Shown here: positions 662 to 64,000 of the stretch, piece after piece
Layout of the letters: every line of letters starts with the position of its first letter
Numbering within the stretch: position 1 is the first letter of the stretch
IMG/VR virus record: IMGVR_UViG_3300048854_000273
Coordinates: 43,413 to 107,412 of that record
Source: a virus
Taxonomy: Duplodnaviria > Heunggongvirae > Uroviricota > Caudoviricetes
DNA length: 64,000 nucleotides
Strand: one strand, 5' to 3'
Made by a program: the position numbers and the translations under genes
The notes under the pieces: generated by a model
Databases searched by the model: none
What the model was told of the DNA's origin: nothing
Seen by the model: the letters and a program-made list of their open reading frames with translations, nothing else

Positions 662-690
662 AAAAAAAAAGGGCGCGGAGGTTGGCGCCC
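662..690 (-). terminator. rho-independent-type hairpin GGGCGC..GCGCCC followed by U9 on minus strand
   Basis: stem 671-676/685-690, A9 at 662-670 on plus strand (U-run on minus transcript); lies between motif 752-765 and GTG start at 635. Confidence 0.5.
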
Positions 691-751
691 ATTCGGAGAC
701 AGAAAAACGAATCAGGGCTCCAATGTAGCCGCGGCCGCGGCATTTGTCAAC

Positions 752-765
752 AGTCAGTTTTGACT
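752..765 (+). promoter_or_regulatory. motif AGTCAGTTTTGACT
   Basis: overlaps the stop codon of 754..1146; followed 62 bp downstream (minus sense) by hairpin 662-690. Confidence 0.6.
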
Positions 766-3588: not shown

Positions 3589-4237
3589 CTTTGTATCCTT
3601 CGGGGGTGTAGGCGACCTCGATCTTTTCGCGGTAGCGCTTCTCGATGTAGACGGAAGGCGCCAAGTCCGCGCGCAGGTCGAGGTGAGTGGTAGCGACAAG
3701 CAGCGTCGCGCCGGCGGTGCGGGCGACCTTCTGCATGTTGAAAGCAATGACGCGGGCAGTGTCCCGGTCGACCACGGCGAGAAACTCGTCGGCAACCCAG
3801 ACCTTGGCGTTCGCTTCGATCAGCTTGGCGAGACGGAACCGGTAGCGCTGCCCGTCCGACAGCTCGGCGGGCTTGCGAATGAACAGGTAGGCGTCGTTCA
3901 GGCCCGCGATCGACAGGTATTTCAGCGCGTCGTTGGTGTCGGTGCCGATCTGGTTGATGAGCGGGCAGTCCTGGAACTGGATCTCATCGATATCGCACAC
4001 GGCGTCGCCGGCGGCCTTCATCTGCGCCTTCAGCTCTCGCAGGACTGTGGACTTTCCCGAGCCGGACTGGCCGGTCACGTAGACCACATCTCCCTGCTCG
4101 ATATCGATTGCCTGGTTGTCGAAAACGACGAATTCCTTGTCGTCCAGACCCAGCCCGAACGCTTCGGCGATCTCCAGCACGCGGTCGGTGCGCTCAACCG
4201 TCGCCGTGAAGCGCTTGTTCACCATGTATTGAGTCAT
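3575..4237 (-). CDS. ABC-transporter-type ATP-binding domain protein (stand-alone NBD)
   Basis: Walker A GQSGSGKST, ABC signature LSDGQRYRFRLA, Walker B VWVADEF, H-loop TTHLD; start taken at MTQYMVNKRF. Confidence 0.65.
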   Translation of the reverse strand: MTQYMVNKRFTATVERTDRVLEIAEAFGLGLDDKEFVVFDNQAIDIEQGDVVYVTGQSGSGKSTVLRELKAQMKAAGDAVCDIDEIQFQDCPLINQIGTDTNDALKYLSIAGLNDAYLFIRKPAELSDGQRYRFRLAKLIEANAKVWVADEFLAVVDRDTARVIAFNMQKVARTAGATLLVATTHLDLRADLAPSVYIEKRYREKIEVAYTPEGYKDAGH

Positions 4238-4760: not shown

Positions 4761-5411
4761 TCATGCGCTTGTCACTTCCTTTGCGTGAGCAACCAGCGCG
4801 TCGGCGCCGGTCAAACCTGTCTGGGATTCGATCGTTGCCATGAAGCGCGCAAGGTGACGCTCATCGCGGCCCGCGATGCTCTTGAAGCCCAGCACCTTGT
4901 CGAGCCGCACATCACGCGAATCGGTTTCCTCGACTGCCTTGGTTGCCGACTGAGCCTGCTCACGCACGACCACGTTCAGATCCTCGACGAACGGTGCGTC
5001 GTTGATTTCGCCCAGGTCCGCGGTCATGAACTCCAGCTCCTTCGCGTCGAAGATGCCTTCGAGGCTGACTTCAAGCGAGGCCAGTTCTTCCTGAAGCAGG
5101 CGCGCGTCGATCTCCGAGATCGCAACGCGGTTGTCGGCCAGACGCAGCGCCTTGGCTTCTTCCTTCGAGAGGTCATCGCGGACCACGACCGGAACGTGCT
5201 TCAGCACAGGTTCAAGTAGCGATGCGAGGCGCCGGCCGTGACCCGCGATGATCGTGCCGTCGGCTTCCGTGACGATCGCCGTGGTCCAGCCGAACGTGTC
5301 GATGGACTTTCTGATCTTGGCGATCTGCGCGGCGTCGTGGATCTTCGCGTTGCCCGCGTAGGGCTTCAGGAAGTCGATCGGCTTCAGTTGTGGCTTGAAT
5401 TCTTGACTCAT
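4761..5411 (-). CDS. ParB-like nuclease domain protein
   Basis: ParB/Srx N-terminal motif TIIAGHGRRLA. Confidence 0.65.
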   Translation of the reverse strand: MSQEFKPQLKPIDFLKPYAGNAKIHDAAQIAKIRKSIDTFGWTTAIVTEADGTIIAGHGRRLASLLEPVLKHVPVVVRDDLSKEEAKALRLADNRVAISEIDARLLQEELASLEVSLEGIFDAKELEFMTADLGEINDAPFVEDLNVVVREQAQSATKAVEETDSRDVRLDKVLGFKSIAGRDERHLARFMATIESQTGLTGADALVAHAKEVTSA

Positions 5412-5600: not shown

Positions 5601-5987
5601 TCAGACGATCACCCAGTCTTCAGCCAGCATGTCGGTCTGAGTTGGCACCCACGGGACTAACTTGTCGTCGGTTGTCTTGATGCAGACCCAGGGCAGCTCC
5701 GGCAGCTCGCCACCCTTACTGCTCGTCAGCAAGCAGCCCTGTGGGTCAAAAATTTCGAGCCACATGCCCTTGCCGTTCCATCCCGCGCGCGCGACTCGCT
5801 GGTCTAGCTTCACCGCGTCAATCGCTAGTCCAAACGTGAGACCATCAGCGGCGCGATAGGCTTTGTGGAACGTGTCAGCAGGTGACCAGCTCATGTAGCC
5901 GTCCTCGTATTGAACGGTGTAACCGTCGACGCCCTCACGGGCCTGCGGCTGTGCCTGGACGATCTTTGTGCCGATATAGCGCTTCAT
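5601..5987 (-). CDS. DUF2829-like protein
   Basis: ARAGWNGKGMWLEI matches the conserved GWNGKGM core of the phage-associated DUF2829 family (from memory). Confidence 0.5.
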   Translation of the reverse strand: MKRYIGTKIVQAQPQAREGVDGYTVQYEDGYMSWSPADTFHKAYRAADGLTFGLAIDAVKLDQRVARAGWNGKGMWLEIFDPQGCLLTSSKGGELPELPWVCIKTTDDKLVPWVPTQTDMLAEDWVIV

Positions 5988-6004
5988 GCGTCTATCCTTT
6001 AACC

Positions 6005-6018
6005 AGTCAGTATTGACT
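6005..6018 (+). promoter_or_regulatory. motif AGTCAGTATTGACT
   Basis: 17 nt upstream of the ATG of 5601..5987. Confidence 0.6.
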
Positions 6019-6021
6019 GTT

Positions 6022-6669
6022 TTAATGCGTAAGCAGATGGACCAGCGCGTTGCCAGCGTTGGTCAGGGAGTCGTCTTCGGTGAACCGCTGGGCCTTCATC
6101 GTGGACTCGATCAACTCCGTGATGGTGCTGACGTCCTCGACCGGAACCTTGAAGCGCATCACCTGGTGGGTCTGAACCGCCTTCTCTTTCGGGAGAACGC
6201 TCGGGCTCCCGTCATCGTCCGGTATGTCTAAATCATCCAGCGCTATATTTACTGACGAGAAGATCGACGCGAAATCAGCGTCGGTGTAGGGCATGAAGCT
6301 CGCGAGGTCATCGGGTGAGCCCAGACCTTCCAGAAGCTCCGCCAGGCGCAACGTGTCGTCGTTGCCGTAGCGGCCGTTGTCGACCAGGCTGATCTCTTTT
6401 GCCCGCTTGTCGTCAATGCGACCGAGGTTCGTCACCGGCACCTGCGATAGCTTCAAACGGATCGCTGCATCGCGCCGGTGTGCGCCGCCCAGGATCTCCA
6501 GTGAGCCGTCATCCAGTTCGCGAACGATGATCGGCTTGAAGAGGCCCAGGCGCGTGATGGACGCGTCAATCTTGGCCTCGTTCTCGGGGCTGACCACGTT
6601 CGTGTTCCAGCCGTTGTGCTTCAATCGCTCGGGCGCGATCTGCACCGACTGGAATGGGGTTTTGCTCAT
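6022..6669 (-). CDS. ParB-like nuclease domain protein
   Basis: LEILGGAHRRDAAIRL ParB-type motif; AGGA RBS; motif 6690-6703 lies 20 nt upstream. Confidence 0.65.
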   Translation of the reverse strand: MSKTPFQSVQIAPERLKHNGWNTNVVSPENEAKIDASITRLGLFKPIIVRELDDGSLEILGGAHRRDAAIRLKLSQVPVTNLGRIDDKRAKEISLVDNGRYGNDDTLRLAELLEGLGSPDDLASFMPYTDADFASIFSSVNIALDDLDIPDDDGSPSVLPKEKAVQTHQVMRFKVPVEDVSTITELIESTMKAQRFTEDDSLTNAGNALVHLLTH

Positions 6670-8297: not shown

Positions 8298-8313
8298 AAC
8301 GTGCTACTTTGAT

Positions 8314-8327
8314 AGTCATTACTGACT
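8314..8327 (+). promoter_or_regulatory. motif variant AGTCATTACTGACT
   Basis: 12 nt upstream of ATG 8340. Confidence 0.45.
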
Positions 8328-8339
8328 ATGGAGCATTCA

Positions 8340-10986: not shown

Positions 10987-11002
10987 CGTTTCACGTGAAA
11001 CA
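10987..11002. promoter_or_regulatory. canonical parS centromere-like site CGTTTCACGTGAAACA
   Basis: 15/16 match to the chromosomal parS consensus TGTTTCACGTGAAACA; perfect 14-bp palindrome GTTTCACGTGAAAC. Confidence 0.6.
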
Positions 11003-11023: not shown

Positions 11024-11770
11024 TTACACAGAAAAGAGCGCTTGCACTTTCTTAGCTGCGTTCGACTCAGTGAGCGTGATTGAGTCGTCTTTACGACCCT
11101 TCACGACGTTGCAAATGTTCATAAAGCGCAACATTTGACGCGTGCTAGATGCTTGCGTGCTTGCGGTTGACGGTTCGCACATTTTGAAGCTGCGCACCGC
11201 TTCGGTTTGCATATCTTCACTAAAGACAACTTTATTTGAGAGCGAGATTTGCGAACCGCGATTAGACAGCGCTTGCAACTTCGTCAGATTACGCAGAATA
11301 GCGACCGTGTAACCGTCAAATACTGACGTCATACCGCATGCGAGAGCAAACACCGCTTTACGGATCTTTTGCGCTGCATAGATAGCGATGTAGTCGTGTG
11401 CGCGTGCATCGCTAATGGCGTATTGGCGCGACAGCGCTTCAAAGTCAATTTCAAGCTCAATGCAACGCTCAATAGCGATCAGAGCATTACGACCGCTCAA
11501 AGCGCTCAATTCAGCGTTCATGTTCTTTTTGAAGTTATCGGACGGTGCATTCACAATGCGCGTTTTGATCGATTCGAGAATCAGCGTTTGCATGCGAACC
11601 GCTTTATCTGCATTCGATTCAGTTTGAACCGGTGCAGCGCTTTCAATCGTCGTTTCGACTGCGAGCGCTTCAACCGTTTGCACTTCGTCTCGCGTGAGCG
11701 TTTCGACAGCTTGAACCGGTGCGTTCTTACGTGCGCGCTTTGCTTTCGTGACGTTTGCTTGTGCGTTCAT
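11024..11770 (-). CDS. hypothetical protein (248 aa) in a low-GC island
   Basis: ORF with distinctly lower GC than neighbours; flanked by parS (10987) and a half-parS TGTTTCACGTG (11783-11793). Confidence 0.5.
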   Translation of the reverse strand: MNAQANVTKAKRARKNAPVQAVETLTRDEVQTVEALAVETTIESAAPVQTESNADKAVRMQTLILESIKTRIVNAPSDNFKKNMNAELSALSGRNALIAIERCIELEIDFEALSRQYAISDARAHDYIAIYAAQKIRKAVFALACGMTSVFDGYTVAILRNLTKLQALSNRGSQISLSNKVVFSEDMQTEAVRSFKMCEPSTASTQASSTRQMLRFMNICNVVKGRKDDSITLTESNAAKKVQALFSV

Positions 11771-11800
11771 TTTTCGACTCTCAAAGTGTGTTGTGTTTCA

Positions 11801-11814
11801 CGTGTCAGACAGTC
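11801..11814 (+). promoter_or_regulatory. motif AGTCAGTTTTTACT
   Basis: 30 nt upstream of 11024..11770 start; preceded by half-parS. Confidence 0.55.
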
Positions 11815-26970: not shown

Positions 26971-27354
26971 ATGAAAAGGCAAGCTCTCGGGCTAGCGTTG
27001 CTTGGCTTTGTTGGGTTCGCCCATGCGACCGACTGGATGCTTTATGCCAAGACCGACAATGTGTCGGTATTCGTGGCCGCCGATCGAATTACTCGCGAAG
27101 ACAAATACGCGGAAACATGGCAAAAATGGGTCTTTAATAAGCCGCAAAGCTATAACGGCAAGGCCTACAACTATTCCATAGAGCAAGTCAGCGTCTACTG
27201 TGACGCGGCTGGCTACTCAACTCGCGTTCATGCCGTGACTACCTATAAAACGAAAGGGCAGCCCGTCGCTTCTGCTACTGCGGCTGGCGAATGGACAACA
27301 GTGATCCCGGATTCCATCGGCGAGGCGGTGGCTATGGCTATCTGCAAGCAATAA
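26971..27354 (+). CDS. secreted protein (signal peptide), paralog B, low GC
   Basis: MKRQALGLALLGFVGFAHATDWMLY...; AAGGAGGGGGG RBS. Confidence 0.55.
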   Translation: MKRQALGLALLGFVGFAHATDWMLYAKTDNVSVFVAADRITREDKYAETWQKWVFNKPQSYNGKAYNYSIEQVSVYCDAAGYSTRVHAVTTYKTKGQPVASATAAGEWTTVIPDSIGEAVAMAICKQ

Positions 27355-34816: not shown

Positions 34817-35440
34817 TTAGGCGACGGCTACCAGACCACCCGAGACAGGCGCACTCTTGATTACGCCGACCTTGATGCCCGCAGCCTTCAGTGCAGCGTT
34901 CAAATCACCCACCGGCAAAGCCGGGAGCATCGGCTTCGGCGCGGTGACTTCAGCCGGCAGGAACCCTTCGACCTCAGGCCACATGTCGATCAGCTTATTG
35001 AGGGACGTGGTCGAGTAGACGGTTCGCTTAAGGCTTGCCTTCAAGTCGCCGACCTTGTTGTCGAGCACGACCTTGTCTTCCATGATTTCTCGGTATTCCG
35101 CGTGGAGCGCGTCGTTGTCGATTGTCAGGCTGCTGCTGCGTCCCGGAAACGGCACAACCCGCGACAGATCCATCGAACTCAGCGAGTCACGGTAATAGCC
35201 AGTCTTCGGATCTTTGAAGGTGATGTGACAAACGTTCGACAGATTCAGGAACTCGTCCGGCGCCAAACGCGCGGCCTTTTCCTGCGCCGGAGACACGACG
35301 AAGCGATAGCACTTGTCGGCCAGCTTTACGAGGCGTTTCTTGTGCTGCTGAAATTCTTTCTCGAAAGCCCCTTTCATGGCGTTTTCGGTGATTTTGTCTC
35401 GCATAAAGTTGGACAGCTTTACATTACTCGTCATAGTCAA
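34817..35440 (-). CDS. hypothetical protein (207 aa)
   Basis: ORF. Confidence 0.45.
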   Translation of the reverse strand: MTMTSNVKLSNFMRDKITENAMKGAFEKEFQQHKKRLVKLADKCYRFVVSPAQEKAARLAPDEFLNLSNVCHITFKDPKTGYYRDSLSSMDLSRVVPFPGRSSSLTIDNDALHAEYREIMEDKVVLDNKVGDLKASLKRTVYSTTSLNKLIDMWPEVEGFLPAEVTAPKPMLPALPVGDLNAALKAAGIKVGVIKSAPVSGGLVAVA

Positions 35441-35980: not shown

Positions 35981-36610
35981 TCAGTGCAACATCGCACCCG
36001 CTTCGACTTCCGCGTGCATCAGTTGCAGCGTGCGAGCCTCGCCCCGCTTCACCGCATACTCGACCGCCTCGATCCGCTCCTTTAGACCCGTCATCTTGCG
36101 CGGGATGTAGAAGTGGATCGGCTTGACCCTCTCATCCACTGTGAAGCCGAGGATGAGCGAATTCAAATGCTCGATGTAGGCAGCATTTGCGACCGCCTTG
36201 CCCTCCGCCGCGATGATCGGAATACCGGGCTGCACCAGCATCAGAATCCCGAAGCGCCGGTTGGTCACGTCGATGCACTTCTGAACGTAACGCGCAAAGC
36301 GCCCCTGGTCTTCCTCCGCAACTCGGTCGTTGATCGCTTCGGCCATCGTGTAGGCGATCATGTCCAGCGGTGTGCGGTCGGTGATGACGTCCTCACCCGC
36401 ATGCTCACCGTAAATGCGGTCGATACGTTCCAGAATCTTCTCCTGGTGAGCCAACCGCTCGGCGAACGTGTGCTCCCTCGTCAGATCAAAGCCAAGATCG
36501 CGGTTGATGGCGCTGACCGACGTTTCGAGGAACGTGCTGCCGGACTTCAACGCGTAGCCCTTCGCCAGCGTTGTCTTCCCAGTCCGGTGGGCGCCACACA
36601 GACCGATCAT
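35981..36610 (-). CDS. P-loop NTPase, putative (d)NMP/nucleoside kinase-like
   Basis: Walker A GAHRTGKTTLA; start taken at MIGLCGAH; the track's N-terminal extension is Arg-rich. Confidence 0.55.
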   Translation of the reverse strand: MIGLCGAHRTGKTTLAKGYALKSGSTFLETSVSAINRDLGFDLTREHTFAERLAHQEKILERIDRIYGEHAGEDVITDRTPLDMIAYTMAEAINDRVAEEDQGRFARYVQKCIDVTNRRFGILMLVQPGIPIIAAEGKAVANAAYIEHLNSLILGFTVDERVKPIHFYIPRKMTGLKERIEAVEYAVKRGEARTLQLMHAEVEAGAMLH

Positions 36611-37284
36611 TACGCCACCGCTTCCTGAGCCGCGCCTTCTTCCAGCAGCACGCGCTCGGCGACGACGTCGCGATTGACCGCCGCATTCGGGTCGAACGCG
36701 CCTTTCTGATAGCGGCCTGCCTTTTTGTCGTTCAGCTTGTTGATGTTGGCGAAATTGCACTGCTCGCGGGTGTAGCCGAGCACGTCGAGCGCGACCTCGC
36801 CATACCACGACGAGTCGCCCTGTTCTTCCAGCAGGTTGACCTTGTCCACCTGCTGACCCAGTAGCGTCGGCACGATGCCCTCGATGAATTCGCCAGCTTC
36901 AGTGAATTGGCCGATCGCTGCGTGCAGCAGGCGCAGGTCCACGCCGTCCGCGCTGAGACTCTTCGCCACCTCTTCCGGCAGGTTCTGCATGAAGAAGTGA
37001 ACGTCCTGCGGATCGCGGTAGCGACCAGTGCTGACCGGGAATTTCAGCGACTCGGCGGTTGCCTGCACGACGGCGATCGCTTCGAGCATTTTCTTCTGGT
37101 CCATGTCGCGACCGTAGTAGATGGCGCGCTTGACCTGATCGAGCGCTGTGCTTGCGGCGATTGCCATGTTCAGCGCAACCAGCAAGGTGGCCGGGCCGAA
37201 GTTCAGGGCTGTCGGCCGGCTTTCGGTCGAGAGAACGGCGGTGCGGTAGTCGGCGTTGTTCAGGGTGGTTTGTGCTTGCGTCAT
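36610..37284 (-). CDS. MazG-like nucleoside-triphosphate pyrophosphohydrolase
   Basis: AIGQFTEAGEFIEGIV and LLEEQGDSSWYG match the MazG/HisE EExxE and EExGDxxWY motifs (from memory). Confidence 0.55.
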   Translation of the reverse strand: MTQAQTTLNNADYRTAVLSTESRPTALNFGPATLLVALNMAIAASTALDQVKRAIYYGRDMDQKKMLEAIAVVQATAESLKFPVSTGRYRDPQDVHFFMQNLPEEVAKSLSADGVDLRLLHAAIGQFTEAGEFIEGIVPTLLGQQVDKVNLLEEQGDSSWYGEVALDVLGYTREQCNFANINKLNDKKAGRYQKGAFDPNAAVNRDVVAERVLLEEGAAQEAVA

Positions 37285-44811: not shown

Positions 44812-45572
44812 GATCCAAACCCCTCGTATAGCTTCATTGCGCCGGCATTGCGCGCTATTTCGTTCTGCCGTGATGCCTGCGCGGCCAGCTCCTCCTTCTG
44901 CTCGAGGACGTCTTTCAACGTTTCACGCAAATAGGTCGTAAAGCCAGCCCCGAACACTTTCGCGCACTGCTTCTCCGGCACTTCGAGGTATTCGAAGTCG
45001 CTCGGATCGGTCGGCCTGAGCATGATTAGCGTCTGCCCTTTCTTGCCGATATACGCGCTCGATGGCCGGAAATCCTCACCGCCGATGAACGCGGTGTTCC
45101 GATATTCCTTGCCCTTCTTCGTGATCAGCTTCATCGGGGCGGTAAGACTGAACGCCTGCGGCGACTGGGCAAACGCATCGCCGTATTGCGCGACAAGGTC
45201 CGCGAGTTGCGCGTCCATGTCAGTGCCCGCTGGTGCTTCCATGTAGTCCTCCATCTGTTTTGGGGTGAGAGGGGTGTGGGTGTATTGCCGGATCGGATTT
45301 GCGATCGGCTTGGGCTTGCCGTATTTCGGCGGCTTACCCTGCTTGACCAGCAACTCGTCGACGTAGCCTTCATGGCCGCCACCGTGCCGACTCGCGTCCT
45401 CGCTGTTGTAGCCGGTGATCATGAGATCAGCCATCGACGACTTGCCAGCGCGCCGCGGTGTCAAGATCACCTTCTCAATGAGACGCCCCGACGTGTCGTA
45501 GCGGCTTGCGCCGGCGCTCTCGATCAGCTTTTCGAGAACACCAGGCGTCGAGTAGGGCAGCTTAGAAGCCAC
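44805..45572 (-). CDS. hypothetical protein (255 aa), C-terminus ...YEGFGSW
   Basis: ORF. Confidence 0.45.
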   Translation of the reverse strand: MASKLPYSTPGVLEKLIESAGASRYDTSGRLIEKVILTPRRAGKSSMADLMITGYNSEDASRHGGGHEGYVDELLVKQGKPPKYGKPKPIANPIRQYTHTPLTPKQMEDYMEAPAGTDMDAQLADLVAQYGDAFAQSPQAFSLTAPMKLITKKGKEYRNTAFIGGEDFRPSSAYIGKKGQTLIMLRPTDPSDFEYLEVPEKQCAKVFGAGFTTYLRETLKDVLEQKEELAAQASRQNEIARNAGAMKLYEGFGSW

Positions 45573-47508
45573 GTTCCGTCGCTCCGCTGACCTTCGTGAT
45601 GCCGCCGGCCTTCTCGGCCACGATCACGTTGTCAATCCAATCCCCGAGCGCGTTATGGCTGATCACCAGCACCGTGCCGCGCTCGCGTGCCTTGCGTTCA
45701 AGAATAGTCATCAGACGCTCCAGACCGGCGTCATCAAGCGCGTGGTCGATCTCGTCACCGATCCACAGGTTGATCGGCTTCGACGCGCGGGTCGCCACCA
45801 TGTCCTGCAGTGCCATCGACGATGCGACGCGCGCCTTGCGCTTTTCACCGCCCGACAGACCGGCGAAGGACTTCGCGCCCTTGTCGTTCGTGACCTCGAT
45901 GTTGAACTTCTCCTTCAGTTCGCCCTTCGCGGTCTTGGCAAGCGTGTTCCAGGTCGCGTGAATGTTCCCGTCTGCCAGCACGCCCAGGTAATCGCTCGTC
46001 TGGTCGTTCAGGATCGGCGTCACAGTGTCGAGAATGTGGGCGCGCACACCGGCGGGGCCGAACACCTTCACCGCGAGATCGGCCAGCTCCTTCGCCTTGT
46101 CAGACTGGAACAACGCGTCCTCTGCATCGCCGACGCGCTTTTCCACCTTCTCGCGCTTCTCGCGCCGGTCGGCTTCGATCTTGACCCAGGGGTTCTCCGC
46201 TTCCAGGTGGGCCTTCGCCGCCTTCTTCAGCGCGTCGATCTGTGCGGTCAGCGTCGATTGCTGCCGCTTGTATGCGCGAACCGTGTTCAGGGTGGCGTTC
46301 GTCGCGGTCACGTCGCGCGCCACTTCAGATACGTCAGTCATTGACGCTTTGTAAGTTGCGGCGCTCTCTTGCAGCGTTTTGAGTTCTTCCTGTTTTGCGC
46401 GAATCCGACCGACGAGCGGCACCAGTTCGGCCTTCGTTTCGCCGAGTCGCTTGGTGCGGGCCGTCTTCGCCGCTTCGAGGTCGTGTTCGCAATACGCCTT
46501 CCCACACTCGCCACACGGTTTGCCGATCTGCGACTCGATCTCGGCGAGACCCTTCTGCTGCACTTCCAGGTTCCGTTTGCCCGCCGCGAGCGTTGCCATG
46601 TCGGAGGCGATCTCGCGCTCCTTTGCCGACACAGCGGAGTTGCGCACGTCGAGGATCTTCTGCTCGCCCTTTTGCGCATCCAGCTTCGTCTGGAGACCGG
46701 CAATCTTGGTTACGAGGTCCGCCTCGTCCGGTTCGGCACCCAGCAGCGCCCCGACCTTCGCAAGTTCCGCCGTGATCGGAGGCACTTTTGCCAGTTCGGT
46801 GCGCGCTTTGTCCTTGCGTTGCGACTCGAACAGCGCCTTCTGTTCCTCAGCCGCCTTCAGCTCATCCTCACTCGCCGTGAGCGCGGTCTTAGCGTTCGTC
46901 AGCTCGTTGGCCGCGATGTTGCGTGCGCTGTCGGCGTCGAGGGCACGTTTGCGGGCTTCTGCATAGGCTTCGGACAGCACTTCGACGCCGGCCGCTTCCT
47001 CGATCAAGAGCTTGAGTTGCTTGTCGGTCATGCCGGGCAGGTCGGGCATCTTTTCCTGTCCCGCATAGACGGCAGCCGTGAACACCTCCTTTGACGAGCC
47101 GATGATCTTCTCGACCACCTTCTGCGTCTCCTTGTCGGTGCCCTTCGTCAGGTCCAGATTGCCGGTCGGCAGGATCTGCTTGGCGATCAGCGCGTTCTTG
47201 ATCTCCTTCGACTTTCGGCCGCGCGAGATTTCGAACAGATCGGCGCCGTCTTCCACCGTCACGCTCACGTGACAGTCTTTGCCGACCGTTTCGTTGATCA
47301 CGTCGTCGCCTGACACGCCACGTGCGGTTTCGCCGTAAAGCACCCAGAACAGTGCGTCGACGATGGAAGACTTTCCGGCGCCGTTGCTCTTGGCAGAGGG
47401 GTCGTCGTTGTTCACGCCCTGGATGAGAATCAGACCGCGGCTGTCGAGGTCGATCTGCGCCTCACCGATCGTGAGGAAATTCCTGATTGAAAGTCGTTTA
47501 AAGTCCAT
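45562..47508 (-). CDS. sbcC: SbcC/Rad50-like ATPase (T4 gp46-like)
   Basis: Walker A NGAGKSSIVDAL, long coiled coil with zinc-hook CGECGKAYCEHD, signature LSGGEKRKARVA, D-loop LWIGDEIDHALD. Confidence 0.85.
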   Translation of the reverse strand: MDFKRLSIRNFLTIGEAQIDLDSRGLILIQGVNNDDPSAKSNGAGKSSIVDALFWVLYGETARGVSGDDVINETVGKDCHVSVTVEDGADLFEISRGRKSKEIKNALIAKQILPTGNLDLTKGTDKETQKVVEKIIGSSKEVFTAAVYAGQEKMPDLPGMTDKQLKLLIEEAAGVEVLSEAYAEARKRALDADSARNIAANELTNAKTALTASEDELKAAEEQKALFESQRKDKARTELAKVPPITAELAKVGALLGAEPDEADLVTKIAGLQTKLDAQKGEQKILDVRNSAVSAKEREIASDMATLAAGKRNLEVQQKGLAEIESQIGKPCGECGKAYCEHDLEAAKTARTKRLGETKAELVPLVGRIRAKQEELKTLQESAATYKASMTDVSEVARDVTATNATLNTVRAYKRQQSTLTAQIDALKKAAKAHLEAENPWVKIEADRREKREKVEKRVGDAEDALFQSDKAKELADLAVKVFGPAGVRAHILDTVTPILNDQTSDYLGVLADGNIHATWNTLAKTAKGELKEKFNIEVTNDKGAKSFAGLSGGEKRKARVASSMALQDMVATRASKPINLWIGDEIDHALDDAGLERLMTILERKARERGTVLVISHNALGDWIDNVIVAEKAGGITKVSGATERGF

Positions 47509-48573
47509 TTATGCCTCCACCGCACGAACTGAATCGAGGATTGCCTGACATGCCTTCGCGACTTCGGCTTCGCGTGCATGCCCTAGCGTCTTGACGTAAT
47601 CACCCACCGAAGCGTCGAGCGTCGCGCCTGACTTGATTGCCGCTGCTCCGCCACGCGTCGGTGCCGTGGTGTTCTTCTGGACGTTCAACACGACGCCTTT
47701 CGCGCCGGCCTCGATCAGGAACTCGCGCAGCGCGGCGACTTCTTCCATCTTTGCCGTGTGGATGGACGCACGCACGTAATTTCCGTCCACGATCAGCGGC
47801 ACTTCGCTCGGATCGGTCGAACCGTCGATCTCCACGAACTCCGGTGCGTGCGACTTCATCCAGCGCACGTCCGTGTCCGACACGATCAGGAAGCCCGACT
47901 TCGCGCCCACGTCCGACCAGGTCTGCGGGGTAAGCGAGCCGATGCTGTAGACGCCGCCACCGAAGTCCTTGTTATGGTGATAGTGGCCGCAGAAGATGCG
48001 CCGGAAGCCGAGCGACTGGAGATAGCCCGCGTCGAGTCCGTGCGGCGGGATGCCCGCGATCACACCGTCAACCGGCGCGTGAAGCATCAGATCGCAGGCA
48101 CCGCGGTCTGCCGAGTCGATAGACTCGATCTGCTTTTTCAGCCCATCGATCGACGGGTTCCAGGGGATCATGGCAACGTCATCCGACGCAGCGAGTCCGC
48201 CAAAGTTGAAATCGTTGATCACCTTGCAGCCGATGCCTTCGAGCGCTGTAATGGCACTCGACACGCGGTTCGCTTCCTTCGATTCAAGGTCGTGGTTGCC
48301 GGCGAGGATCACGATACGCACGCCGCTGTCGATGATCTTCTTGTAGGTGTCGATCGTCGGATTTAGGACCGACGGCGCGATAGAGCCGCGCACGTGGAAC
48401 AGGTCGCCGCAGTGGTAGATCGTGTCGCCGCCGAGCGTCTGCACGGTAGCCGCGCAACGCAGCGTCTCGTCGAGGATCATCTGCAGACGGGTGTTGATCC
48501 CGCGCTCATTGGTCGTCGCGAACGCGCTCCAATTGTGGTGATGGGTGTCACTGATAATGCCATACGGCTTCAT
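47509..48573 (-). CDS. sbcD: SbcD/Mre11-like nuclease (T4 gp47-like)
   Basis: calcineurin-like phosphoesterase motifs GDLFHVRG, GNHD, GHYHHN; GGAGGAA RBS. Confidence 0.85.
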   Translation of the reverse strand: MKPYGIISDTHHHNWSAFATTNERGINTRLQMILDETLRCAATVQTLGGDTIYHCGDLFHVRGSIAPSVLNPTIDTYKKIIDSGVRIVILAGNHDLESKEANRVSSAITALEGIGCKVINDFNFGGLAASDDVAMIPWNPSIDGLKKQIESIDSADRGACDLMLHAPVDGVIAGIPPHGLDAGYLQSLGFRRIFCGHYHHNKDFGGGVYSIGSLTPQTWSDVGAKSGFLIVSDTDVRWMKSHAPEFVEIDGSTDPSEVPLIVDGNYVRASIHTAKMEEVAALREFLIEAGAKGVVLNVQKNTTAPTRGGAAAIKSGATLDASVGDYVKTLGHAREAEVAKACQAILDSVRAVEA

Positions 48574-48582
48574 GATTCCTCC

Positions 48583-48596
48583 AGTCAGTTTTGACT
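48583..48596 (+). promoter_or_regulatory. motif AGTCAGTTTTGACT forming the whole spacer between the SleB-like stop and the sbcD RBS
   Basis: minus-sense read: TAG-TGTAGAT-AGTCAAAACTGACT-GGAGGAATC-ATG. Confidence 0.65.
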
Positions 48597-48603
48597 ATCT
48601 ACA

Positions 48604-49008
48604 CTATTTGAAAAAGACGTGGTTTCCTGTTGCGTAGACCCGCGTCATGTCCTTGTCCCACACCGGATGCACCCACTTCGTGTGGTAGTAGGTCGCACCC
48701 TGCGTAAAGTCCTGCGCCTTCCCCTTCAGGGTCACATACGCGACCGCGCGGGCCAGTCGCCATGCGTTCTCGTCGCGGGGCAGCGCCTGGTTCGTGATCG
48801 TCCAGCCGTGCTTGTGGCGTTTGACGAGGCCGTTTGTCCATGAGAACTGCTTGGGCGCCATTACTACTCCGCAAACCTTTTTCTGGTCGCCTTCTGCGCG
48901 GTTCATCGTCGTCATTGCGACCGCCAGTTGCCCGGCGACCGGTTCGCCGCGAGCTTCGTGGAAAACGTTTAGTGCGAGACACAGAAAGGCGCTTGCTAGT
49001 AGCATCAA
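48604..49008 (-). CDS. SleB-family cell-wall hydrolase (secreted)
   Basis: signal peptide then ALNVFHEARGEPVAGQLAVAMTTMNR and YYHTKWVHPVW, typical of SleB/Hydrolase_2. Confidence 0.6.
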   Translation of the reverse strand: MMLLASAFLCLALNVFHEARGEPVAGQLAVAMTTMNRAEGDQKKVCGVVMAPKQFSWTNGLVKRHKHGWTITNQALPRDENAWRLARAVAYVTLKGKAQDFTQGATYYHTKWVHPVWDKDMTRVYATGNHVFFK

Positions 49009-49049
49009 AACTCCATCAATTCACTCACAATTGTCATTATACAATCATC

Positions 49050-49063
49050 AGTCAGGGATGACT
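49050..49063 (+). promoter_or_regulatory. motif spacer variant AGTCAGGGATGACT
   Basis: half-sites kept, spacer changed; 41 nt upstream of the SleB-like ATG. Confidence 0.5.
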
Positions 49064-53947: not shown

Positions 53948-53961
53948 AGTCAGTTTTGACT
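53948..53961 (+). promoter_or_regulatory. motif AGTCAGTTTTGACT
   Basis: 29 nt upstream of the GTG at 53918 (107 nt upstream of ATG 53840) of the SSB gene. Confidence 0.6.
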
Positions 53962-55078: not shown

Positions 55079-55092
55079 ACTCAGTTTTGACT
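55079..55092 (+). promoter_or_regulatory. motif ACTCAGTTTTGACT
   Basis: 6 nt after the dnaE stop; followed by hairpin 55044-55064 then GAGGAG RBS of 53980..55014. Confidence 0.55.
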
Positions 55093-59227: not shown

Positions 59228-59875
59228 TCAAAGAGTGTCGATAATGCGGCGCACTTCCTGGGCCGCTGCTGCCATGTCGCGCGTGCCGACGTCCTTCTTC
59301 ACCAGGCGAATGAACTTGCAGATGAAGCCGATGTTGACGCCGGCGGCGCACCGCGTGCGAATGCCGATGCTGCGGCTGTAATCGCAGTGCGCCTGGTTCT
59401 TCCTGATCTCCTCCAGCAGCGCGGCCGGTGGGCTCACGATCCACTCTACGATCAGCGCCGCGAGCGGGCTCATGCCCTGCACCGCCTTCTCGATCTGGAG
59501 CGCGCACTGTTGCCGGTCCAGAATTTCCTCCGGCGTCATCGCATCGCTCGGGACGGTTTCTAGAAGGTTGGAGCTTTCGTCGTCGCCCATGCCCTCGATG
59601 CTGAACACGCCGTTCTCGCGCTCCTCCTCACTGCTCTCAGCCTTGCGGTTGATGCGGTTGTAGGCTGCGGTGCCGAAATATGTGGTGAAGGCGAAGCCCT
59701 TGCTCGGGTCAAACTTCGCGTGCGCCAGCAGGAAGGCTTCACGAACGTCGGCGAACACGTCGTCGTATTGGGTGGAAGCCTCCAGGTCCAGGAGACGCCC
59801 ATAGCACTTGCGTGCTATCTGGTGGACGAATCCCAGATTCCCCTGGTAGCACTCGACAATGTCGGCGCTATACAT
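59228..59875 (-). CDS. RNA polymerase sigma-70-family factor (regions 2 and 4; ECF-like size)
   Basis: region 2: YQGNLGFVHQIARKCYG...FDPSKGFAFTTYFGTAAYNRINR; C-terminal HTH-like region; 215 aa. Confidence 0.65.
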   Translation of the reverse strand: MYSADIVECYQGNLGFVHQIARKCYGRLLDLEASTQYDDVFADVREAFLLAHAKFDPSKGFAFTTYFGTAAYNRINRKAESSEEERENGVFSIEGMGDDESSNLLETVPSDAMTPEEILDRQQCALQIEKAVQGMSPLAALIVEWIVSPPAALLEEIRKNQAHCDYSRSIGIRTRCAAGVNIGFICKFIRLVKKDVGTRDMAAAAQEVRRIIDTL

Positions 59876-61189: not shown

Positions 61190-63202
61190 TCAGCCAATCA
61201 GCAGCGAGCGCAACTCCTTCATCACGCGTGAGGGCAGCTCCGACACGTTGTTAATGATCATGTGGCGCTTGTAGAACTGTTTAACGGCCTCAGACTGGAT
61301 GCCAATGCCGACGACGCGCACCCCTGCCTTCTCGATGTTCACCACCGTGTCCTTCAGGTGCTGGAATACCGCCGCACCGCCGCCATCACAGGCGGGTGCG
61401 CCATCGGACAGGACGATCATGATCTTGCCCGCCTCGCGACGCTGCATGAGGCGTCGGGCGGCAATCTCGATGCACTCGCCATCGACGTTATTGCGCAACG
61501 TGTTGCAGTTCGGCAGCCAGCCAAAGCGATTGCGCACTTCGGTGGACTGCATGCGCTCGTTGAAGGATTTCAGGATCGGCATGTAGAGGCTTTCCGTTCG
61601 GCTGAACCGCTTGCCAAGACGCTTCTCCTCCTTCTCCATCTTTTCTTCATCCACGATGTTGCCAGTGGTGAAGCAGATGGTCTCGGACTTGATGTTCAGG
61701 CGATCGAGGACCGAGGCGAGCGCATATCCCGCCTGCGCCGCCGTGTGGATCTTGCTACCCCACATCGAGCCCGACATGTCGATCACCAGCTCCACCGCAA
61801 CATCCTTGCTGGTTGACTCATGCTTTTTTCGGAACACACGCGCGTCGCCTACTGCCAGCCGTGACAGGTTGCCACTGTGCAGACGTCCGGAGCGGCGGCC
61901 GTTCTCCCAGACAGAGAGCGAACGCGCACTGATGGCACGCTCCAGATCCTTCTGGAGTGGCGCGACCATGTGGTCGACCTCGTCACTGAGCTTCTTGGTC
62001 ATTTCTGGCTTGAAGCCGGAACCCAAGTGCAGCGGCTCGATGACGTCGTTGTCCTTCGTGTAGACCAGGTATTGCGCCCCTTTCGCCGCCTCGATCGCGT
62101 CGTTGGTGATCAGACGTGACATGGTTTCGTCAAAGCCGTTGGCGGTTTCCTTGTCGAGAGCGGCGAGAAAACCCGACGAATCACCGGTGTTGACGTCCTC
62201 GTCATCCTCCCCCGACGGCTCATCGTCGTCGGATTCCGACTCAGCATCGTCCTCACCGTCCTCACCTTCTTCATCTTCCTCGCCGGATTTGGCTTCTTCA
62301 CCTTCCCCGCCGGCCCCGCCGCTTTCCTCGCCCTCGCCCTCGCCCTCGCCCTCGCCCTCGCCTTCTTCGGAGCCTGAGCCGGACTTGCCACCCGGCAGAC
62401 CTGCGCCGGATTCCTCCTCGCTCTCCTCGTCGCTTTCTTCCTCCGACTCCGGCTTTGGCCCGCTCTTTCCCATCGACGGCTTGCCGGAGCTTGCCTTCGA
62501 CCGGGATTTGGCTTTCTTAGGCTTCGGAGGCGCGGCACCGCCGCCAGCCCCACCGCTCGTCGCACGACCGAGCGCGGTCATCACTTCCTGTGCGAGCGTC
62601 ACGGCGTCGCCTGTGGTCGGGCAGTTTGCAATCTTGGACGCGAGGTGCTCGATCTTGTCGACCTCGTCGGCGATCGCTTCCTGCATGTCCGGGTGATCAG
62701 TGAGCCACTGCTTGAAAATGTGCTGTCCGGCCATCGCTCGCAGCGCCGGCACCATCACCAATGCCTTGACGCCGTTCACGTCGCCCTTCTTGGCAGCTTC
62801 GCGAATCTGCGGCTTGACGTATTTGTCTAGGAAGAACTGGCCCGTCACGGCAATGTTGTGACCCGAACCCTGGAAGCGCTTGGCCATCTCCCGCTCGATA
62901 CGGGTGTCCTCGATGATGTTGACCATGTTGTGCAGGCTCGGGTCGCGAATCGCGTTCATCGCCTTGAAGTCGGTGAACAGGATATGTGCGACCTCATGGT
63001 CGAGAAAGCCCTGAATTGCCGCGCATAGCTCATCGCTGGCGTTATCCGGCAGATACGGCAGATTGACGTGCGCGGGTTCACCGTTGGCCCCAGGCTGGAC
63101 GTATGCGCTGATGCCGCGCTGCGTGACCGTGATGCCCTTGCCCGCCAGCATCTGCGTAATCGTGACTACCGCCTCACGCAGAACAAATACTCGTTCGTTC
63201 AT
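61190..63202 (-). CDS. CobT-like von Willebrand factor A domain protein with internal acidic (EGEGEG) region
   Basis: C-terminal VWA MIDAS VIDMSGSMWGS; central poly-acidic block; paired with the upstream AAA+ gene. Confidence 0.65.
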   Translation of the reverse strand: MNERVFVLREAVVTITQMLAGKGITVTQRGISAYVQPGANGEPAHVNLPYLPDNASDELCAAIQGFLDHEVAHILFTDFKAMNAIRDPSLHNMVNIIEDTRIEREMAKRFQGSGHNIAVTGQFFLDKYVKPQIREAAKKGDVNGVKALVMVPALRAMAGQHIFKQWLTDHPDMQEAIADEVDKIEHLASKIANCPTTGDAVTLAQEVMTALGRATSGGAGGGAAPPKPKKAKSRSKASSGKPSMGKSGPKPESEEESDEESEEESGAGLPGGKSGSGSEEGEGEGEGEGEGEESGGAGGEGEEAKSGEEDEEGEDGEDDAESESDDDEPSGEDDEDVNTGDSSGFLAALDKETANGFDETMSRLITNDAIEAAKGAQYLVYTKDNDVIEPLHLGSGFKPEMTKKLSDEVDHMVAPLQKDLERAISARSLSVWENGRRSGRLHSGNLSRLAVGDARVFRKKHESTSKDVAVELVIDMSGSMWGSKIHTAAQAGYALASVLDRLNIKSETICFTTGNIVDEEKMEKEEKRLGKRFSRTESLYMPILKSFNERMQSTEVRNRFGWLPNCNTLRNNVDGECIEIAARRLMQRREAGKIMIVLSDGAPACDGGGAAVFQHLKDTVVNIEKAGVRVVGIGIQSEAVKQFYKRHMIINNVSELPSRVMKELRSLLIG

Positions 63203-63220
63203 CCTTGCACCTCACTATGT

Positions 63221-63234
63221 AGTCAAAATTGACT
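63221..63234 (-). promoter_or_regulatory. motif in reverse orientation AGTCAAAATTGACT
   Basis: 18 nt upstream of the cobT-like ATG (63202). Confidence 0.55.
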
Positions 63235-63274
63235 GAATAAGTGAATCATAAACGCGCGCTCACGGGAGCGCAAT

Positions 63275-63288
63275 AGTCAGTTTTGACT
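63275..63288 (+). promoter_or_regulatory. motif AGTCAGTTTTGACT
   Basis: preceded by hairpin GCGCTC-acgg-GAGCGC (63255-63272). Confidence 0.55.
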
Positions 63289-63347
63289 TATCTAAGTGGC
63301 GATAAAAAAGGGCGACTTTCGTCACCCTTTCTCAGGGGCAGCAGGAG

Positions 63348-63575
63348 CTAAGAGAGCATTGCCGCAGTGATGATTACCGCTCCTCCACCGTCAGTGTTGA
63401 CCATCATCAACACCCCGAGAACAGGGTGAATCACTTTACTGATTGATGCTGAGCCCAGATCGATCGCGCCGACCGTCTCGCCTTCGCCGAGGACTTCTGA
63501 AAAGCGATCCAAGTCGACCATCTCACCGAATGCATGTTGTTTTGCACTATTGGCCATAGAACCCACCGTCACCAT
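63348..63575 (-). CDS. small hypothetical protein
   Basis: ORF, weak. Confidence 0.3.
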   Translation of the reverse strand: MVTVGSMANSAKQHAFGEMVDLDRFSEVLGEGETVGAIDLGSASISKVIHPVLGVLMMVNTDGGGAVIITAAMLS

Positions 63576-63626
63576 CTGATTCTCCAGAAACGTCGAACAC
63601 GTTATGTTGTCTTACGCACACATTAT

Positions 63627-63640
63627 AGTCAGTGTTGACT
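63627..63640 (+). promoter_or_regulatory. motif AGTCAGTGTTGACT
   Basis: read directly. Confidence 0.5.
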
Positions 63641-63728
63641 ATCGAAAGCAAATAGCCGAAACCGCTAGACGTCCCGCACCCGGTCGGGCGAGAGTCCTTT
63701 GCCTGCGGCGTAGCTCTTCAAACCATAT

Positions 63729-63742
63729 TGTCAAAATTGACT
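63729..63742 (-). promoter_or_regulatory. motif reverse-orientation variant TGTCAAAATTGACT
   Basis: read directly. Confidence 0.45.
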
Positions 63743-63774
63743 GTTACCCAAGTAATTGGTAGTCTGCGCGTGAC

Positions 63775-63788
63775 AGTCAAGTTTTACT
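63775..63788 (+). promoter_or_regulatory. motif variant AGTCAAGTTTTACT
   Basis: read directly; 75 nt upstream of the (+) gene ATG. Confidence 0.4.
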
Positions 63789-63793
63789 GATTG

Positions 63794-63838
63794 GCGTCTA
63801 TAATCGACGCAAGAAATCAATTGCGGGACGTCCCGCAA
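63794..63838 (+). promoter_or_regulatory. inverted repeat GCGTC-TATAAT-c-GACGC (63794-63810) and 18-bp perfect palindrome TTGCGGGACGTCCCGCAA (63821-63838) upstream of the (+) gene
   Basis: TATAAT at 63799-63804; half-repeat GACGTCCCGCA also at 63668-63678. Confidence 0.5.
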
Positions 63839-63862
63839 GACCCAAACAAGGAGGTTTATAAA

Positions 63863-64000
63863 ATGGTAAAGAAAGATACCGCCATGTCGGTGGCAGACTA
63901 CTTCTCGAATCAGGTCGCAGCCAATCAGAAAACTCTTGCCGGCCTAAGCAATGACATCGGTGGCGCACTCCGACCCAATGTTCTGTCGATGATCTCCAAC
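63863..64000 (+). CDS. partial CDS running off window end (MVKKDTAMSVADYFSNQVAANQ...)
   Basis: strong RBS AAGGAGG 8 nt upstream. Confidence 0.5.
   Translation, partial: MVKKDTAMSVADYFSNQVAANQKTLAGLSNDIGGALRPNVLSMISN

Follow-up and report, generated by a model that had tools for sequence, protein, structure and literature searches.

A conserved palindrome ahead of sbcD and its dispersed copies in a relative of the SSU5, RHEph10 and Nickie phages: a candidate operator network

Mycobacteriophages of the L5 type carry more than 20 repressor sites, which lie in promoters and in short intergenic gaps and are oriented with transcription (PMC9283540). In the Cluster A mycobacteriophages the sites within gaps, the so-called stoperators, have been proposed to stop elongating RNA polymerase (PMC9283540). 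Another arrangement of repeated sites is found in P1, where 11 late promoters share the sequence rAC-AAGT[G/T]ACTT-N4-TAnnAT, in which a 9-bp inverted repeat is bound by the Lpa protein (PMC10695390). Here we consider a recurrent 14-base palindrome in a stretch of 64,000 nucleotides (nt) of phage DNA (Caudoviricetes; positions 43,413 to 107,412 of IMG/VR record IMGVR_UViG_3300048854_000273), which is referred to below as the window. One copy of the palindrome, the sbcD copy, occupies the gap between a gene for a SleB-type cell wall hydrolase and an sbcD-type gene. This copy has no promoter of its own and is retained in position among relatives, and together with the other copies it may belong to a set of operators for a phage-encoded regulator.

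Read on the minus strand, the junction runs ...TTCAAA-TAG (48606-48604)-TGTAGAT-AGTCAAAACTGACT (48596-48583)-GGAGG (48582-48578)-AATC-ATG (48573-48571), and the 30-base gap between the hydrolase gene and sbcD is occupied by a single copy of the palindrome. The original prediction for this DNA held that the spacer consists of the motif, and the letters, when reread, match that description exactly. The start codon of sbcD is fixed in place by the first metallophosphoesterase motif, which is held in the N-terminus MKPYGIISDTHHH. The sbcD product is 33-41% identical, and its gene syntenic, to annotated SbcD or exonuclease subunit genes of four relatives, namely SSU5, RHph_X66, Nickievirus hairong and Stenotrophomonas phage BUCTxx99. 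The start of sbcC abuts the stop of sbcD, and sbcC is therefore placed in the same operon; its product shows 37-43% identity to the exonuclease subunit 2 or SbcC genes of the relatives (tblastn).

There is no space for a promoter at the sbcD copy, as the original prediction had argued. In one class of copies, described below, the palindrome is abutted by TATAAT; at the sbcD copy the slot that would hold this hexamer reads TGGAGG, which is the Shine-Dalgarno sequence, and a transcript starting 12 nt after the copy would begin on the sbcD ATG. A scan for sigma-70 consensus promoters returned none between 47000 and 52500, and so found none inside the SleB-like coding region, where a promoter had been named as the result that would speak against the earlier account. 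An upstream ATAG box was considered as the -10 element of the sbcD copy and rejected, being made of the TAG stop and coding sequence and not being conserved in relatives. Upstream of the hydrolase gene, a variant of the palindrome is followed after 8 nt by TATAAT, a layout kept in the related loci L003, L004 and L162 (TATAAT or TAGAAT). Transcription of the hydrolase-sbcDC operon would start from this module (49036-49063), which is situated about 450 bp upstream of the sbcD copy, and no minus-strand terminators were seen between the putative hydrolase promoter and sbcD. Given a palindrome-bearing putative promoter upstream and no intervening terminator, the sbcD copy is very probably transcribed within a hydrolase-sbcD-sbcC message, which agrees with the polycistronic arrangement proposed earlier. 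The lack of a -10 element at this copy likewise upholds the proposal that the motif does not serve as a -35/-10 promoter wherever it occurs.

The palindrome is retained at orthologous junctions. A protein search with SbcD recovered 19 IMG/VR loci, 46-89% identical, and (A)GTCA-N4-TGAC(T) is kept in the gap between hydrolase stop and sbcD start of L001-L003, L005-L018 and L116; overall, the junction palindrome is retained in more than 15 relatives in which SbcD identity ranges from 52 to 91%. Its centre differs among them (AAAC, GTTT, AAAT, GAAG, CAAC, CGAA, CCAG, CCAC, CGAC, CGGA, CCAA and TTAC), and in L001, with an SbcD 89% identical, it is GTTT, the reverse complement of AAAC. In distant loci the TAA stop of the hydrolase gene forms part of the 5′ flank of the palindrome (TAAGTCA) and AGGAG comes directly after TGAC; AGGAG follows the palindrome in most relatives. 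In L011-L013, L015 and L018 there is no Shine-Dalgarno sequence, the sbcD start being 1 nt past the right arm or inside it, and stop and start are separated by 13-15 nt, as is typical of termination-reinitiation coupling. Changes of the right arm that are not compensated in the left are found at the junction in L005 (TTAC), L015 (TGAA) and L018 (TGAG). By this comparison the junction palindrome is under strong positional selection, acting on arm sequence and symmetry rather than on pairing or loop. A separate feature of L004 (IMGVR_UViG_3300047323_000428, positions 3445-4000) is a NUMOD4-like gene of the homing-endonuclease type (WKDIAGYEGLY) inserted right after the junction palindrome and before sbcD.

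Within the window the palindrome is greatly over-represented. The 14-mer has 31 matches with at most two mismatches, against 0.20 expected, and none of 100 shuffles reached 31; GTCA-N4-TGAC has 19 matches against 1.1 expected. The minus strand, which is the coding strand of nearly all window genes, carries 27 of the 31 matches, and 27 of 33 distinct motif sites are intergenic, though about 77% of the window is coding, a figure that rests on crude gene calls. The motif takes up nearly the whole of three gaps in the range of 20-45 nt: 5988-6021, 8298-8338 and the hydrolase/sbcD gap. The copy in the first of these lies 3 nt past the upstream stop and 17 nt ahead of the ATG. Many other copies stand 0-15 nt upstream of intrinsic terminators, and layouts composed of motif, -10 element and terminator recur. 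A weight matrix of the 27 minus-strand copies reads rA[c/t]-AGT[C/a]AAAACTGA[C/g]T-[a/g]T-www, with A0, G1, T2, A4, A7, T9, G10 and A11 invariant. On the coding strand, variation within each arm is confined to its C: C3 becomes A in 6 copies and C12 becomes G, T or A in 9, the would-be partners G10 and G1 remaining unchanged. The centre is AAAC in 23 of about 30 window copies and is free between genomes. Relative to the downstream gene, the AAAC centre in the window is co-oriented at 29 sites (23 sense, 6 at divergent junctions), antisense at one and facing a convergent gene at one. Ratios of sense to other are 29:1, 12:2, 8:1 and 7:1 in the window and the three closest contigs, and mixed or antisense in more distant contigs (for example 0:3, 1:4 and 3:4).

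Two parts of the window show denser arrangements. The control region at 63200-63870 holds five palindrome copies or variants in about 550 bp (63221+, 63275-, 63390, 63627- and 63729+) as well as AGTCAAGTTTTACT at 63775; they surround a 75-amino-acid open reading frame (ORF) between divergent gene blocks, and a plus-strand TATAAT follows the last variant. Elsewhere, a perfect parS-like palindrome, GTTTCACGTGAAAC, is located at 10988-11001 directly after motif copy 11002, and a partial parS-like copy, CACGTGAAAC, at 11795-11808 directly after motif copy 11811. A unit of motif, CACGTGAAAC, about 25 nt and ATG thus stands on both sides of a lower-GC ORF of 248 amino acids (11024-11770, minus strand), and the pair has the appearance of a regulatory cassette duplicated on either side of an acquired gene.

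The relation of the motif to promoters was assessed on 132 distinct copies, pooled from 35 related loci together with the window, with genes called by GC content at third codon positions (GC3). A -10 hexamer was accepted when at least 5 of 6 positions of TATAAT were present, and offsets were counted from the first base of the 14-mer. Among 92 sense copies, a hexamer abuts the palindrome at +13/+14 in 25 (for example AGTCAAAACTGAC-TATAAT), lies at +22/+23 (8-9 nt past the palindrome) in 3, at +36/+38 (22-24 nt past it, looser matches included) in 9, and at -9/-10 (3-4 nt upstream of it) in 5. The abutting hexamer is directional: 20 of 88 sites carry it downstream, against 3 of 88 that have one at the mirror position. 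Modules of this class have no -35 element at 17 bp; a weakly conserved GTCGA box and a TTGCC-like element occur 22-23 bp upstream. Besides the copy ahead of the gene for a gp32-like single-stranded DNA-binding protein (SSB), the promoter-embedded class includes the copies at 39658, 63627, 43954, 26430, 19418, 14027 and 41024. Measured from the inferred start, the palindrome centre is about 28 or 41.5-43.5 bases upstream, and elsewhere the palindrome abuts the -10 element or covers the start itself. The copy at 752, which adjoins a consensus promoter, has orthologous sites at L036:7901, L036:5858 and L048:2217. By the consensus scan, canonical sigma-70 promoters are otherwise nearly absent from the coding strand, which leaves the motif-linked modules as the principal candidates for control points. 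The terS-like gene beside copy 752 (window 1-765, minus strand) is a homologue of SSU5_001 and runs off the start of the window, and the terminator in its leader is GGGCGCC...GCGCCC followed by T9. The layout of motif, promoter and terminator before this gene resembles lambda PR′-tR′ and suggests late-gene control by antitermination.

By gene order and protein identity the window is a 60%-GC relative of the SSU5/RHEph10/Nickie family of siphophages and phage-plasmids. A megablast search of the window against phage records gave no match, and distant blastn matches, at about 70% identity, fell in sbcCD of Rhizobium RHEph10-like, Pseudomonas Nickievirus and Stenotrophomonas phages and of Klebsiella and Salmonella SSU5-like elements. 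The window ORFs match SSU5, RHph_X66, hairong and BUCTxx99 at 25-52% identity and in the same order (tblastn). The gene order common to these four runs CobT-CobS-(Sigma70_r2 protein)-DNA polymerase III (PolIII) alpha-gp32-like SSB-5′-3′ exonuclease-RecA and, further on, hydrolase-SbcD-SbcC-RuvC-NrdA-NrdB-ThyX. SSU5, the AB group, RHEph10 and Nickie were grouped together by Pfeifer et al. as distant relatives (PMC7969092). RHEph10, a relative of RHph_X66, is homologous to the phage-plasmid pLM21S1, and SSU5-type phage-plasmids are common in Enterobacteriaceae (PMC7969092). For the Nickievirus psageB1, temperate behaviour was not observed (PMC8537276). A locus whose SbcD is 91% identical to that of the window (L162, NZ_JASGFN010000003.1) occupies roughly 392-397 kb on a contig of 449,862 bp from a Paraburkholderia metagenome-assembled genome (MAG) and has the same junction sequence, which suggests that this relative is an integrated prophage or is carried on a large replicon. 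Because of this 91%-identical SbcD, and since 60% GC fits, the host of the window phage is probably Paraburkholderia; the element itself is probably temperate. A T5-like identity, suggested by the first DNA matches, was set aside on the grounds that T5 is motif-free (no copy of GTCA-N4-TGAC in the 50 kb examined), that a different gene lies upstream of its D12, and that the window is syntenic with SSU5, RHph_X66 and Nickievirus. In T5 a terminator lies between D11 and D12.

Related palindromes are present in two of the four relatives. RHph_X66 has nine intergenic copies of TA-AGTAA-N4-TTACT-TA, one of them 14 nt upstream of sbcD; a GCTATAA box precedes most of them by 4-10 nt, which puts the palindrome on top of the expected start. 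In SSU5, about 18 sites read TA[A/G]GTAA-N4-TTAC[C/T]TA or the shorter TAAGT-N4-ACTTA. These are found in late operons, in the TerL/portal gap, among tail genes and before the holin gene, and in early operons, at CobT/CobS, after RecA, and upstream of sbcD, NrdA and ThyX. The SSU5 half-sites TAAGTA and TAGGTA mix freely, so that A or G is chosen independently in the two halves. The TAnnnT sequence flanking the SSU5 sites was considered as a -10 element and rejected, as it occurs at 13 of 25 downstream and 12 of 25 mirror positions and is thus a mirror-symmetric extension of the palindrome. The palindromes of SSU5 and RHph_X66 share with those of the window the architecture TA-RGTMA-N4-TKACY-TA, an intergenic placement that often begins at the upstream stop, and a copy upstream of sbcD; they differ in having arms GTAA/TTAC or GGTAA/TTACC, not GTCA/TGAC, and SSU5 differs further in its mirror-symmetric flanks and in carrying sites in late structural operons too. 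On these likenesses they are the same element family, with arms that switch jointly between lineages (GTCA/TGAC in the window, GTAA/TTAC in RHph_X66, RGTAA/TTACY in SSU5). No enriched palindrome was detected in 28.5 kb of Nickievirus hairong or in 44 kb of BUCTxx99. In the literature searched, which covered Nickievirus, RHEph10 and an SSU5 repressor, no text contained these palindromes or described the element, and no operator set was described for SSU5-type elements. SSU5 (L158 and L159; for example at 81, 30449, 42729 and 80773-94525) also holds a second repeated palindrome, (AAGA)AAACAA-N-TTGTTT, with 11 exact copies, or 13-14 by arm counts. It lies mostly 8-15 nt before starts in the accessory region, and otherwise before terS, parA and CobT, and is probably the operator set of another regulator.

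The reading that we favour, tentatively and at somewhat less than an even chance, is that the motif is a double-stranded DNA operator of a putative dimeric phage-encoded regulator and that the sbcD copy is an intra-operon, stoperator-like site. A dimeric protein binding double-stranded DNA is suggested by arms that are conserved around a free centre and change jointly between lineages, by halves that vary independently and without compensation within a genome, and by the several positions occupied within the polymerase footprint. The putative operator sites would form a genome-wide network, and at promoter-embedded sites the bound protein would compete with RNA polymerase. The sbcD copy, promoterless and transcribed from the palindrome-bearing promoter upstream, would act at the DNA level, either as a roadblock to polymerase reading on into the genes of the SbcCD nuclease or as an auxiliary operator that cooperates with the promoter-proximal site. 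To judge from the placements, repression is the only single role that would fit all of them, whether in the spacer, over the -35 element, over the start, beside a perfect -35 element or without a promoter; as all these placements fall inside the polymerase footprint, occlusion by a repressor fits better than one fixed geometry of activation. The consensus promoter beside copy 752 needs no activator and is counted in support of repression. Finally, the motif is found in lineages that are or may be temperate (SSU5, RHph_X66 and the window clade) and is absent from the regions examined of two lytic relatives, which fits prophage silencing. Of the two options raised in the original prediction, the evidence favours the DNA operator acting as a roadblock; protein binding, repression and a block to elongation at the palindrome are what we infer from these patterns.

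Several observations weigh against an operator network. Scans of about 70 window proteins against Pfam and PHROG found no binder, the only clear DNA-binding candidates being an HTH_27 protein (1217-1543), two ParB-like proteins and a sigma70_r2 protein, and no DNA-binding candidate tracks the motif across relatives. The promoter-embedded copies have no recognisable -35 element, which is how activator-dependent promoters look, as opposed to constitutive ones under repression. A symmetric dimer does not predict that the arms differ in their substitution spectra, nor that the centre is oriented with transcription at about 29:1 in the window clade. The 14-mer and 18-mer forms in SSU5 separate their half-sites by either 8 or 12 bp, a difference that a single rigid dimer would accommodate poorly; several copies immediately precede intrinsic terminators, which would seem to leave a roadblock with little to do; and the case for a temperate connection draws on five lineages, with genomes that are partial. 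It is on account of the missing binder and -35 element, the unequal arm spectra, the biased centre and the SSU5 spacing variants that the operator reading stays at the tentative level given above. Individual candidates for the motif's partner were also rejected. The sigma70_r2 protein was excluded because a palindrome of 14-18 bp cannot hold both a -35 and a -10 element and so cannot be its promoter, and because SSU5 has the motif with no sigma gene at that position. The 75-amino-acid ORF amid the five motif copies (63348-63575) has no family match and its product is acidic and does not look like a DNA-binding protein. The HTH_27 protein has homologues in the motif-negative BUCTxx99, and the ParB-like proteins are present in all relatives, including the motif-negative ones. 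Phyletic profiling of the partial genomes returned no protein specific to motif-positive genomes.

Alternatively, the palindrome could be the site of an activator of the P1 Lpa type, replacing the -35 element and directing a start about 12 nt downstream, in which case the sbcD copy would be non-initiating (a vestige, a decoy or something else). This is unlikely, though the directional -10 element, whose distance is constant in 25 of 92 sense sites, the abutting modules without a -35 element at 17 bp, and the shared logic of the P1 late promoters (inverted repeat plus -10 element) all speak for it, as does a GC-rich genome with hardly any consensus promoters, in which an activator-dependent design would keep lytic genes silent by default. 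The combination of an inverted repeat and a fixed-distance -10 element with no -35 element is limited to about 27% of sense copies and does not extend to the sbcD copy, where TGGAGG stands at the -10 slot and a transcript initiated 12 nt further on would lack the Shine-Dalgarno sequence; the copies at 6005, 51961 and 8314 and the one in the SSU5 TerL/portal gap are likewise unsuited. The sbcD site nevertheless persists across more than 15 relatives, some of which have given up the Shine-Dalgarno sequence for it, and no single mechanism of activation covers centres about 28 and 41.5-43.5 bases upstream, over the start, and beside a perfect -35 element, while the flanking TAnnnT of SSU5, at 13 versus 12 of 25, is not a directional -10 element. 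Less likely again is that the motif acts in RNA, as an AGUCA-AAAC-UGACU hairpin 5′ of the ribosome-binding site that would serve processing or stability, act as a translational operator, or couple sbcD to the hydrolase gene. The original prediction leaned towards such a role, which has lost ground with the uncompensated arm changes, an unstable fold and the lack of an Rfam match. Pairing is no better than chance: for a 7-pair hairpin, 81.0% of cells are paired in the paralogous copies versus 79.9% after column shuffling, where 133 of the 500 shuffles reached the observed value; at the orthologous junctions (n=16) the figures are 75.0% versus 74.3%. The five core pairs depart only as unpaired cells, with no compensation in 30 paralogous copies and 16 junctions. 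A 6-bp hairpin is predicted at the sbcD copy; against this, 14 of 31 window copies have no central hairpin in the minimum-energy fold, stems range from -2 to -7 kcal/mol, the fold of 70 nt at the junction (z=+0.46) is no stabler than shuffles, and Rfam has 0 matches in the whole window. A conserved stem with a free loop is also the reverse of typical recognition of hairpins by proteins, the abutting -10 class puts the start of transcription downstream of the motif, and the AAAC centre, whose orientation with transcription in the window clade counts in favour of the RNA reading, is often antisense to genes in more distant relatives. The RNA-hairpin reading is thus without comparative support; it keeps some weight because the sbcD copy is almost certainly transcribed and because in L011-L013, L015 and L018, without a Shine-Dalgarno sequence, the start codon lies at the 3′ arm with a coupling-like stop-start distance. 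The 4-nt loop kept by both the 14-mer and 18-mer variants of SSU5 is also in line with it.

It is improbable, too, that the palindrome is a module-boundary or mobile regulatory cassette, comparable to the promoter early stem-loop (PeSL) units of T4-type phages, so that the junction copy reflects history and not regulation of sbcD. Such a cassette would account for the ORF at 11024-11770, flanked on both sides by motif, CACGTGAAAC, about 25 nt and ATG, for the NUMOD4/HNH-type gene inserted exactly after the junction copy in L004, for the recurrent arrangements of motif, -10 element and terminator, and for a centre AAAC that is near-invariant within the genome and free between genomes, which suggests copying or homogenisation. 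It leaves unexplained the discrete spacing to -10 hexamers and the retention at one orthologous junction down to 52% protein identity, and a short recombination linker does not explain why dyad symmetry is kept, with changed arms, across SSU5, Rhizobium phages and the window clade. Most improbable is a role in which a ParB-family protein would use the palindromes as dispersed centromere-like or loading sites, the silencing of neighbouring genes being a side effect. Dispersed sites have parallels in the KorB OB sites on RK2 and the scattered partition sites of prophage N15; the motif is palindromic and dispersed, the window encodes two ParB-like proteins (4761-5411 and 6022-6669), and the family includes plasmid-prophages (PMC7969092). 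Against such sites, a ParB-like nuclease-domain protein is also encoded by Nickievirus and BUCTxx99, which are motif-free in the regions examined, more than 30 sites per 64 kb placed almost all at gene starts are unlike known centromere arrays, and a canonical parS-like palindrome, GTTTCACGTGAAAC, exists separately at 10988-11001.

The features of the junction and the representative copies to which the operator reading refers are collected in Table 1.

Table 1. Positions of the palindrome copies, associated signals and genes in the window
Feature	Position	Strand	Details
Core palindrome AGTCA-AAAC-TGACT (sbcD copy)	48583..48596	-	Copy studied; weaker symmetric flank extends it to 48581-48598
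Shine-Dalgarno sequence GGAGG of sbcD	48578..48582	-	Directly 3′ of right arm; 4 nt before ATG (48571-48573)
SleB-type cell wall hydrolase gene	48604..49005	-	133 amino acids; Pfam PF07486 Hydrolase_2, E=9.4e-19
sbcD-type metallophosphoesterase gene	47509..48573	-	354 amino acids; Pfam Metallophos
sbcC-type ATPase gene	45562..47508	-	648 amino acids; start adjoins sbcD stop
Palindrome variant AGTCA-TCCC-TGACT (AGTCATCCCTGACT)	49050..49063	-	Upstream of hydrolase gene; left arm at -35 position
TATAAT	49036..49041	-	Putative -10 element of hydrolase-sbcDC operon; about 30 nt upstream of hydrolase start (49005)
Gap-filling copy	6005..6018	-	Between ParB_N gene (6022-6669) and Tad2-like gene (5601-5987)
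Gap-filling copy	8314..8327	+	Co-oriented with plus-strand genes; 11 nt ahead of ATG at 8339
Promoter-embedded copy, AGTCAAAACTGAC-TATAAT	53948..53961	-	Upstream of gp32-like SSB gene; orthologous site L076:7815
Copy with downstream TATACT	55079..55092	-	TATACT 22 nt past palindrome; centre near -41.5; orthologous site L076:6080; site 61153 similar
Copy beside consensus promoter	752..765	-	Adjoins TTGACA-N17-TACATT promoter, then intrinsic terminator in terS-like leader

Other genes of the window were noted in passing. The Sigma70_r2 protein (59228-59875, minus strand; 215 amino acids) is encoded between CobS and PolIII alpha, a gene common to RHph_X66 and absent at that position in SSU5 and Nickievirus hairong. 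The ParB-like nuclease or partition-domain proteins (4761-5411 and 6022-6669, both minus strand) adjoin a divergent DEAD-box helicase, and a protein with a Tad2-like (anti-Thoeris) domain is encoded at 5601-5987 (minus strand); this arrangement is shared with SSU5. The presence of a protein with an Nmad5 (nucleotide-modification-associated) domain (34817-35434, minus strand) and of a MazG-like pyrophosphatase (36610-37284, minus strand) is a hint that the phage DNA may contain modified bases. A surface lipoprotein of the Adhesin_E family is encoded on the opposite strand (26971-27354, plus strand) in a lower-GC stretch, and its gene is likely a moron. The CobT-like protein (61190-63202, minus strand) has an acidic, Gly/Glu/Ser-rich low-complexity insert of about 120 residues.

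How SSU5-type phage-plasmids keep about 100 kb of lytic genes silent was not described in the literature searched. It is possible, though rather doubtful, that the SSU5/RHEph10/Paraburkholderia group silences or times most of its lytic genes through the palindrome network TA-RGTMA-N4-TKACY-TA, with a co-evolved dimeric regulator and with roadblocks at conserved sites inside operons, such as the one ahead of sbcDC. If this were true, the network would amount to a stoperator system like that of the mycobacteriophages, though palindromic and proteobacterial, and lost in the lytic relatives. One palindrome family marks most gene-cluster starts in SSU5, Rhizobium phages and the Paraburkholderia-type element, and offers a handle on their control circuit. 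The palindrome could be used as bait for the regulator, the lineage-specific arm changes forming a natural specificity series, and the conserved promoterless copy ahead of sbcDC provides a clean test case for roadblock versus RNA mechanisms. The outcome is in part negative, in that the site at the junction is real, conserved and, as far as the sequence indicates, transcribed, and the hairpin reading is comparatively unsupported. The element family appears to be undescribed for this group of phages and phage-plasmids, whereas the kind of system is already known.

Among known systems, small RNA hairpin operators such as lambda boxB and the MS2/R17 coat-protein site are alike in being stem-loops with loops of 4-5 nt near a ribosome-binding site or in a leader. 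In boxB and MS2/R17, loop and bulge bases are recognised and stems covary; the window motif, unlike these, has a free loop, a fixed stem sequence and broken pairs that are uncompensated. The PeSLs of T4-type phages, reportedly described by Arbiol et al. in 2010, are said to be repeated units of promoter and stem-loop at the 5′ ends of many small genes. Short repeated units with a promoter and a stem-loop or terminator that flank acquired genes have likenesses in the window at 11002/11811 and 41024; PeSLs are defined by a sigma-70 early promoter and a stem-loop, whereas the window element is a conserved palindrome of fixed arm sequence. P1 is similar in being a phage-plasmid with dozens of transcription units that each have a copy of a regulator site. 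The C1 operators of P1 are asymmetric 17-mers. Its late promoters resemble the AGTCAAAACTGAC-TATAAT class in having an inverted repeat in place of the -35 element together with a -10 element; the P1 box, however, is 9 bp long, centred at -22 and 4 nt from the -10 element, whereas the window palindrome is 14-18 bp long, abuts the -10 element, and occurs also at other distances or with no -10 element. The Cluster A stoperators of the L5 gp71 type resemble the window element in that a single short site recurs more than 20 times, both in promoters and in short gaps between co-transcribed genes, and the sbcD copy occupies a gap of the kind in which stoperators lie. They are asymmetric 13-mers bound by a monomer, whereas the window site is a palindrome of 5-N4-5 up to 7-N4-7, and its orientation bias, unlike theirs, is confined to a close clade. 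With the repressor and the roadblock of the window both putative, the stoperator network would be the closest working analogy for this dispersed palindrome.

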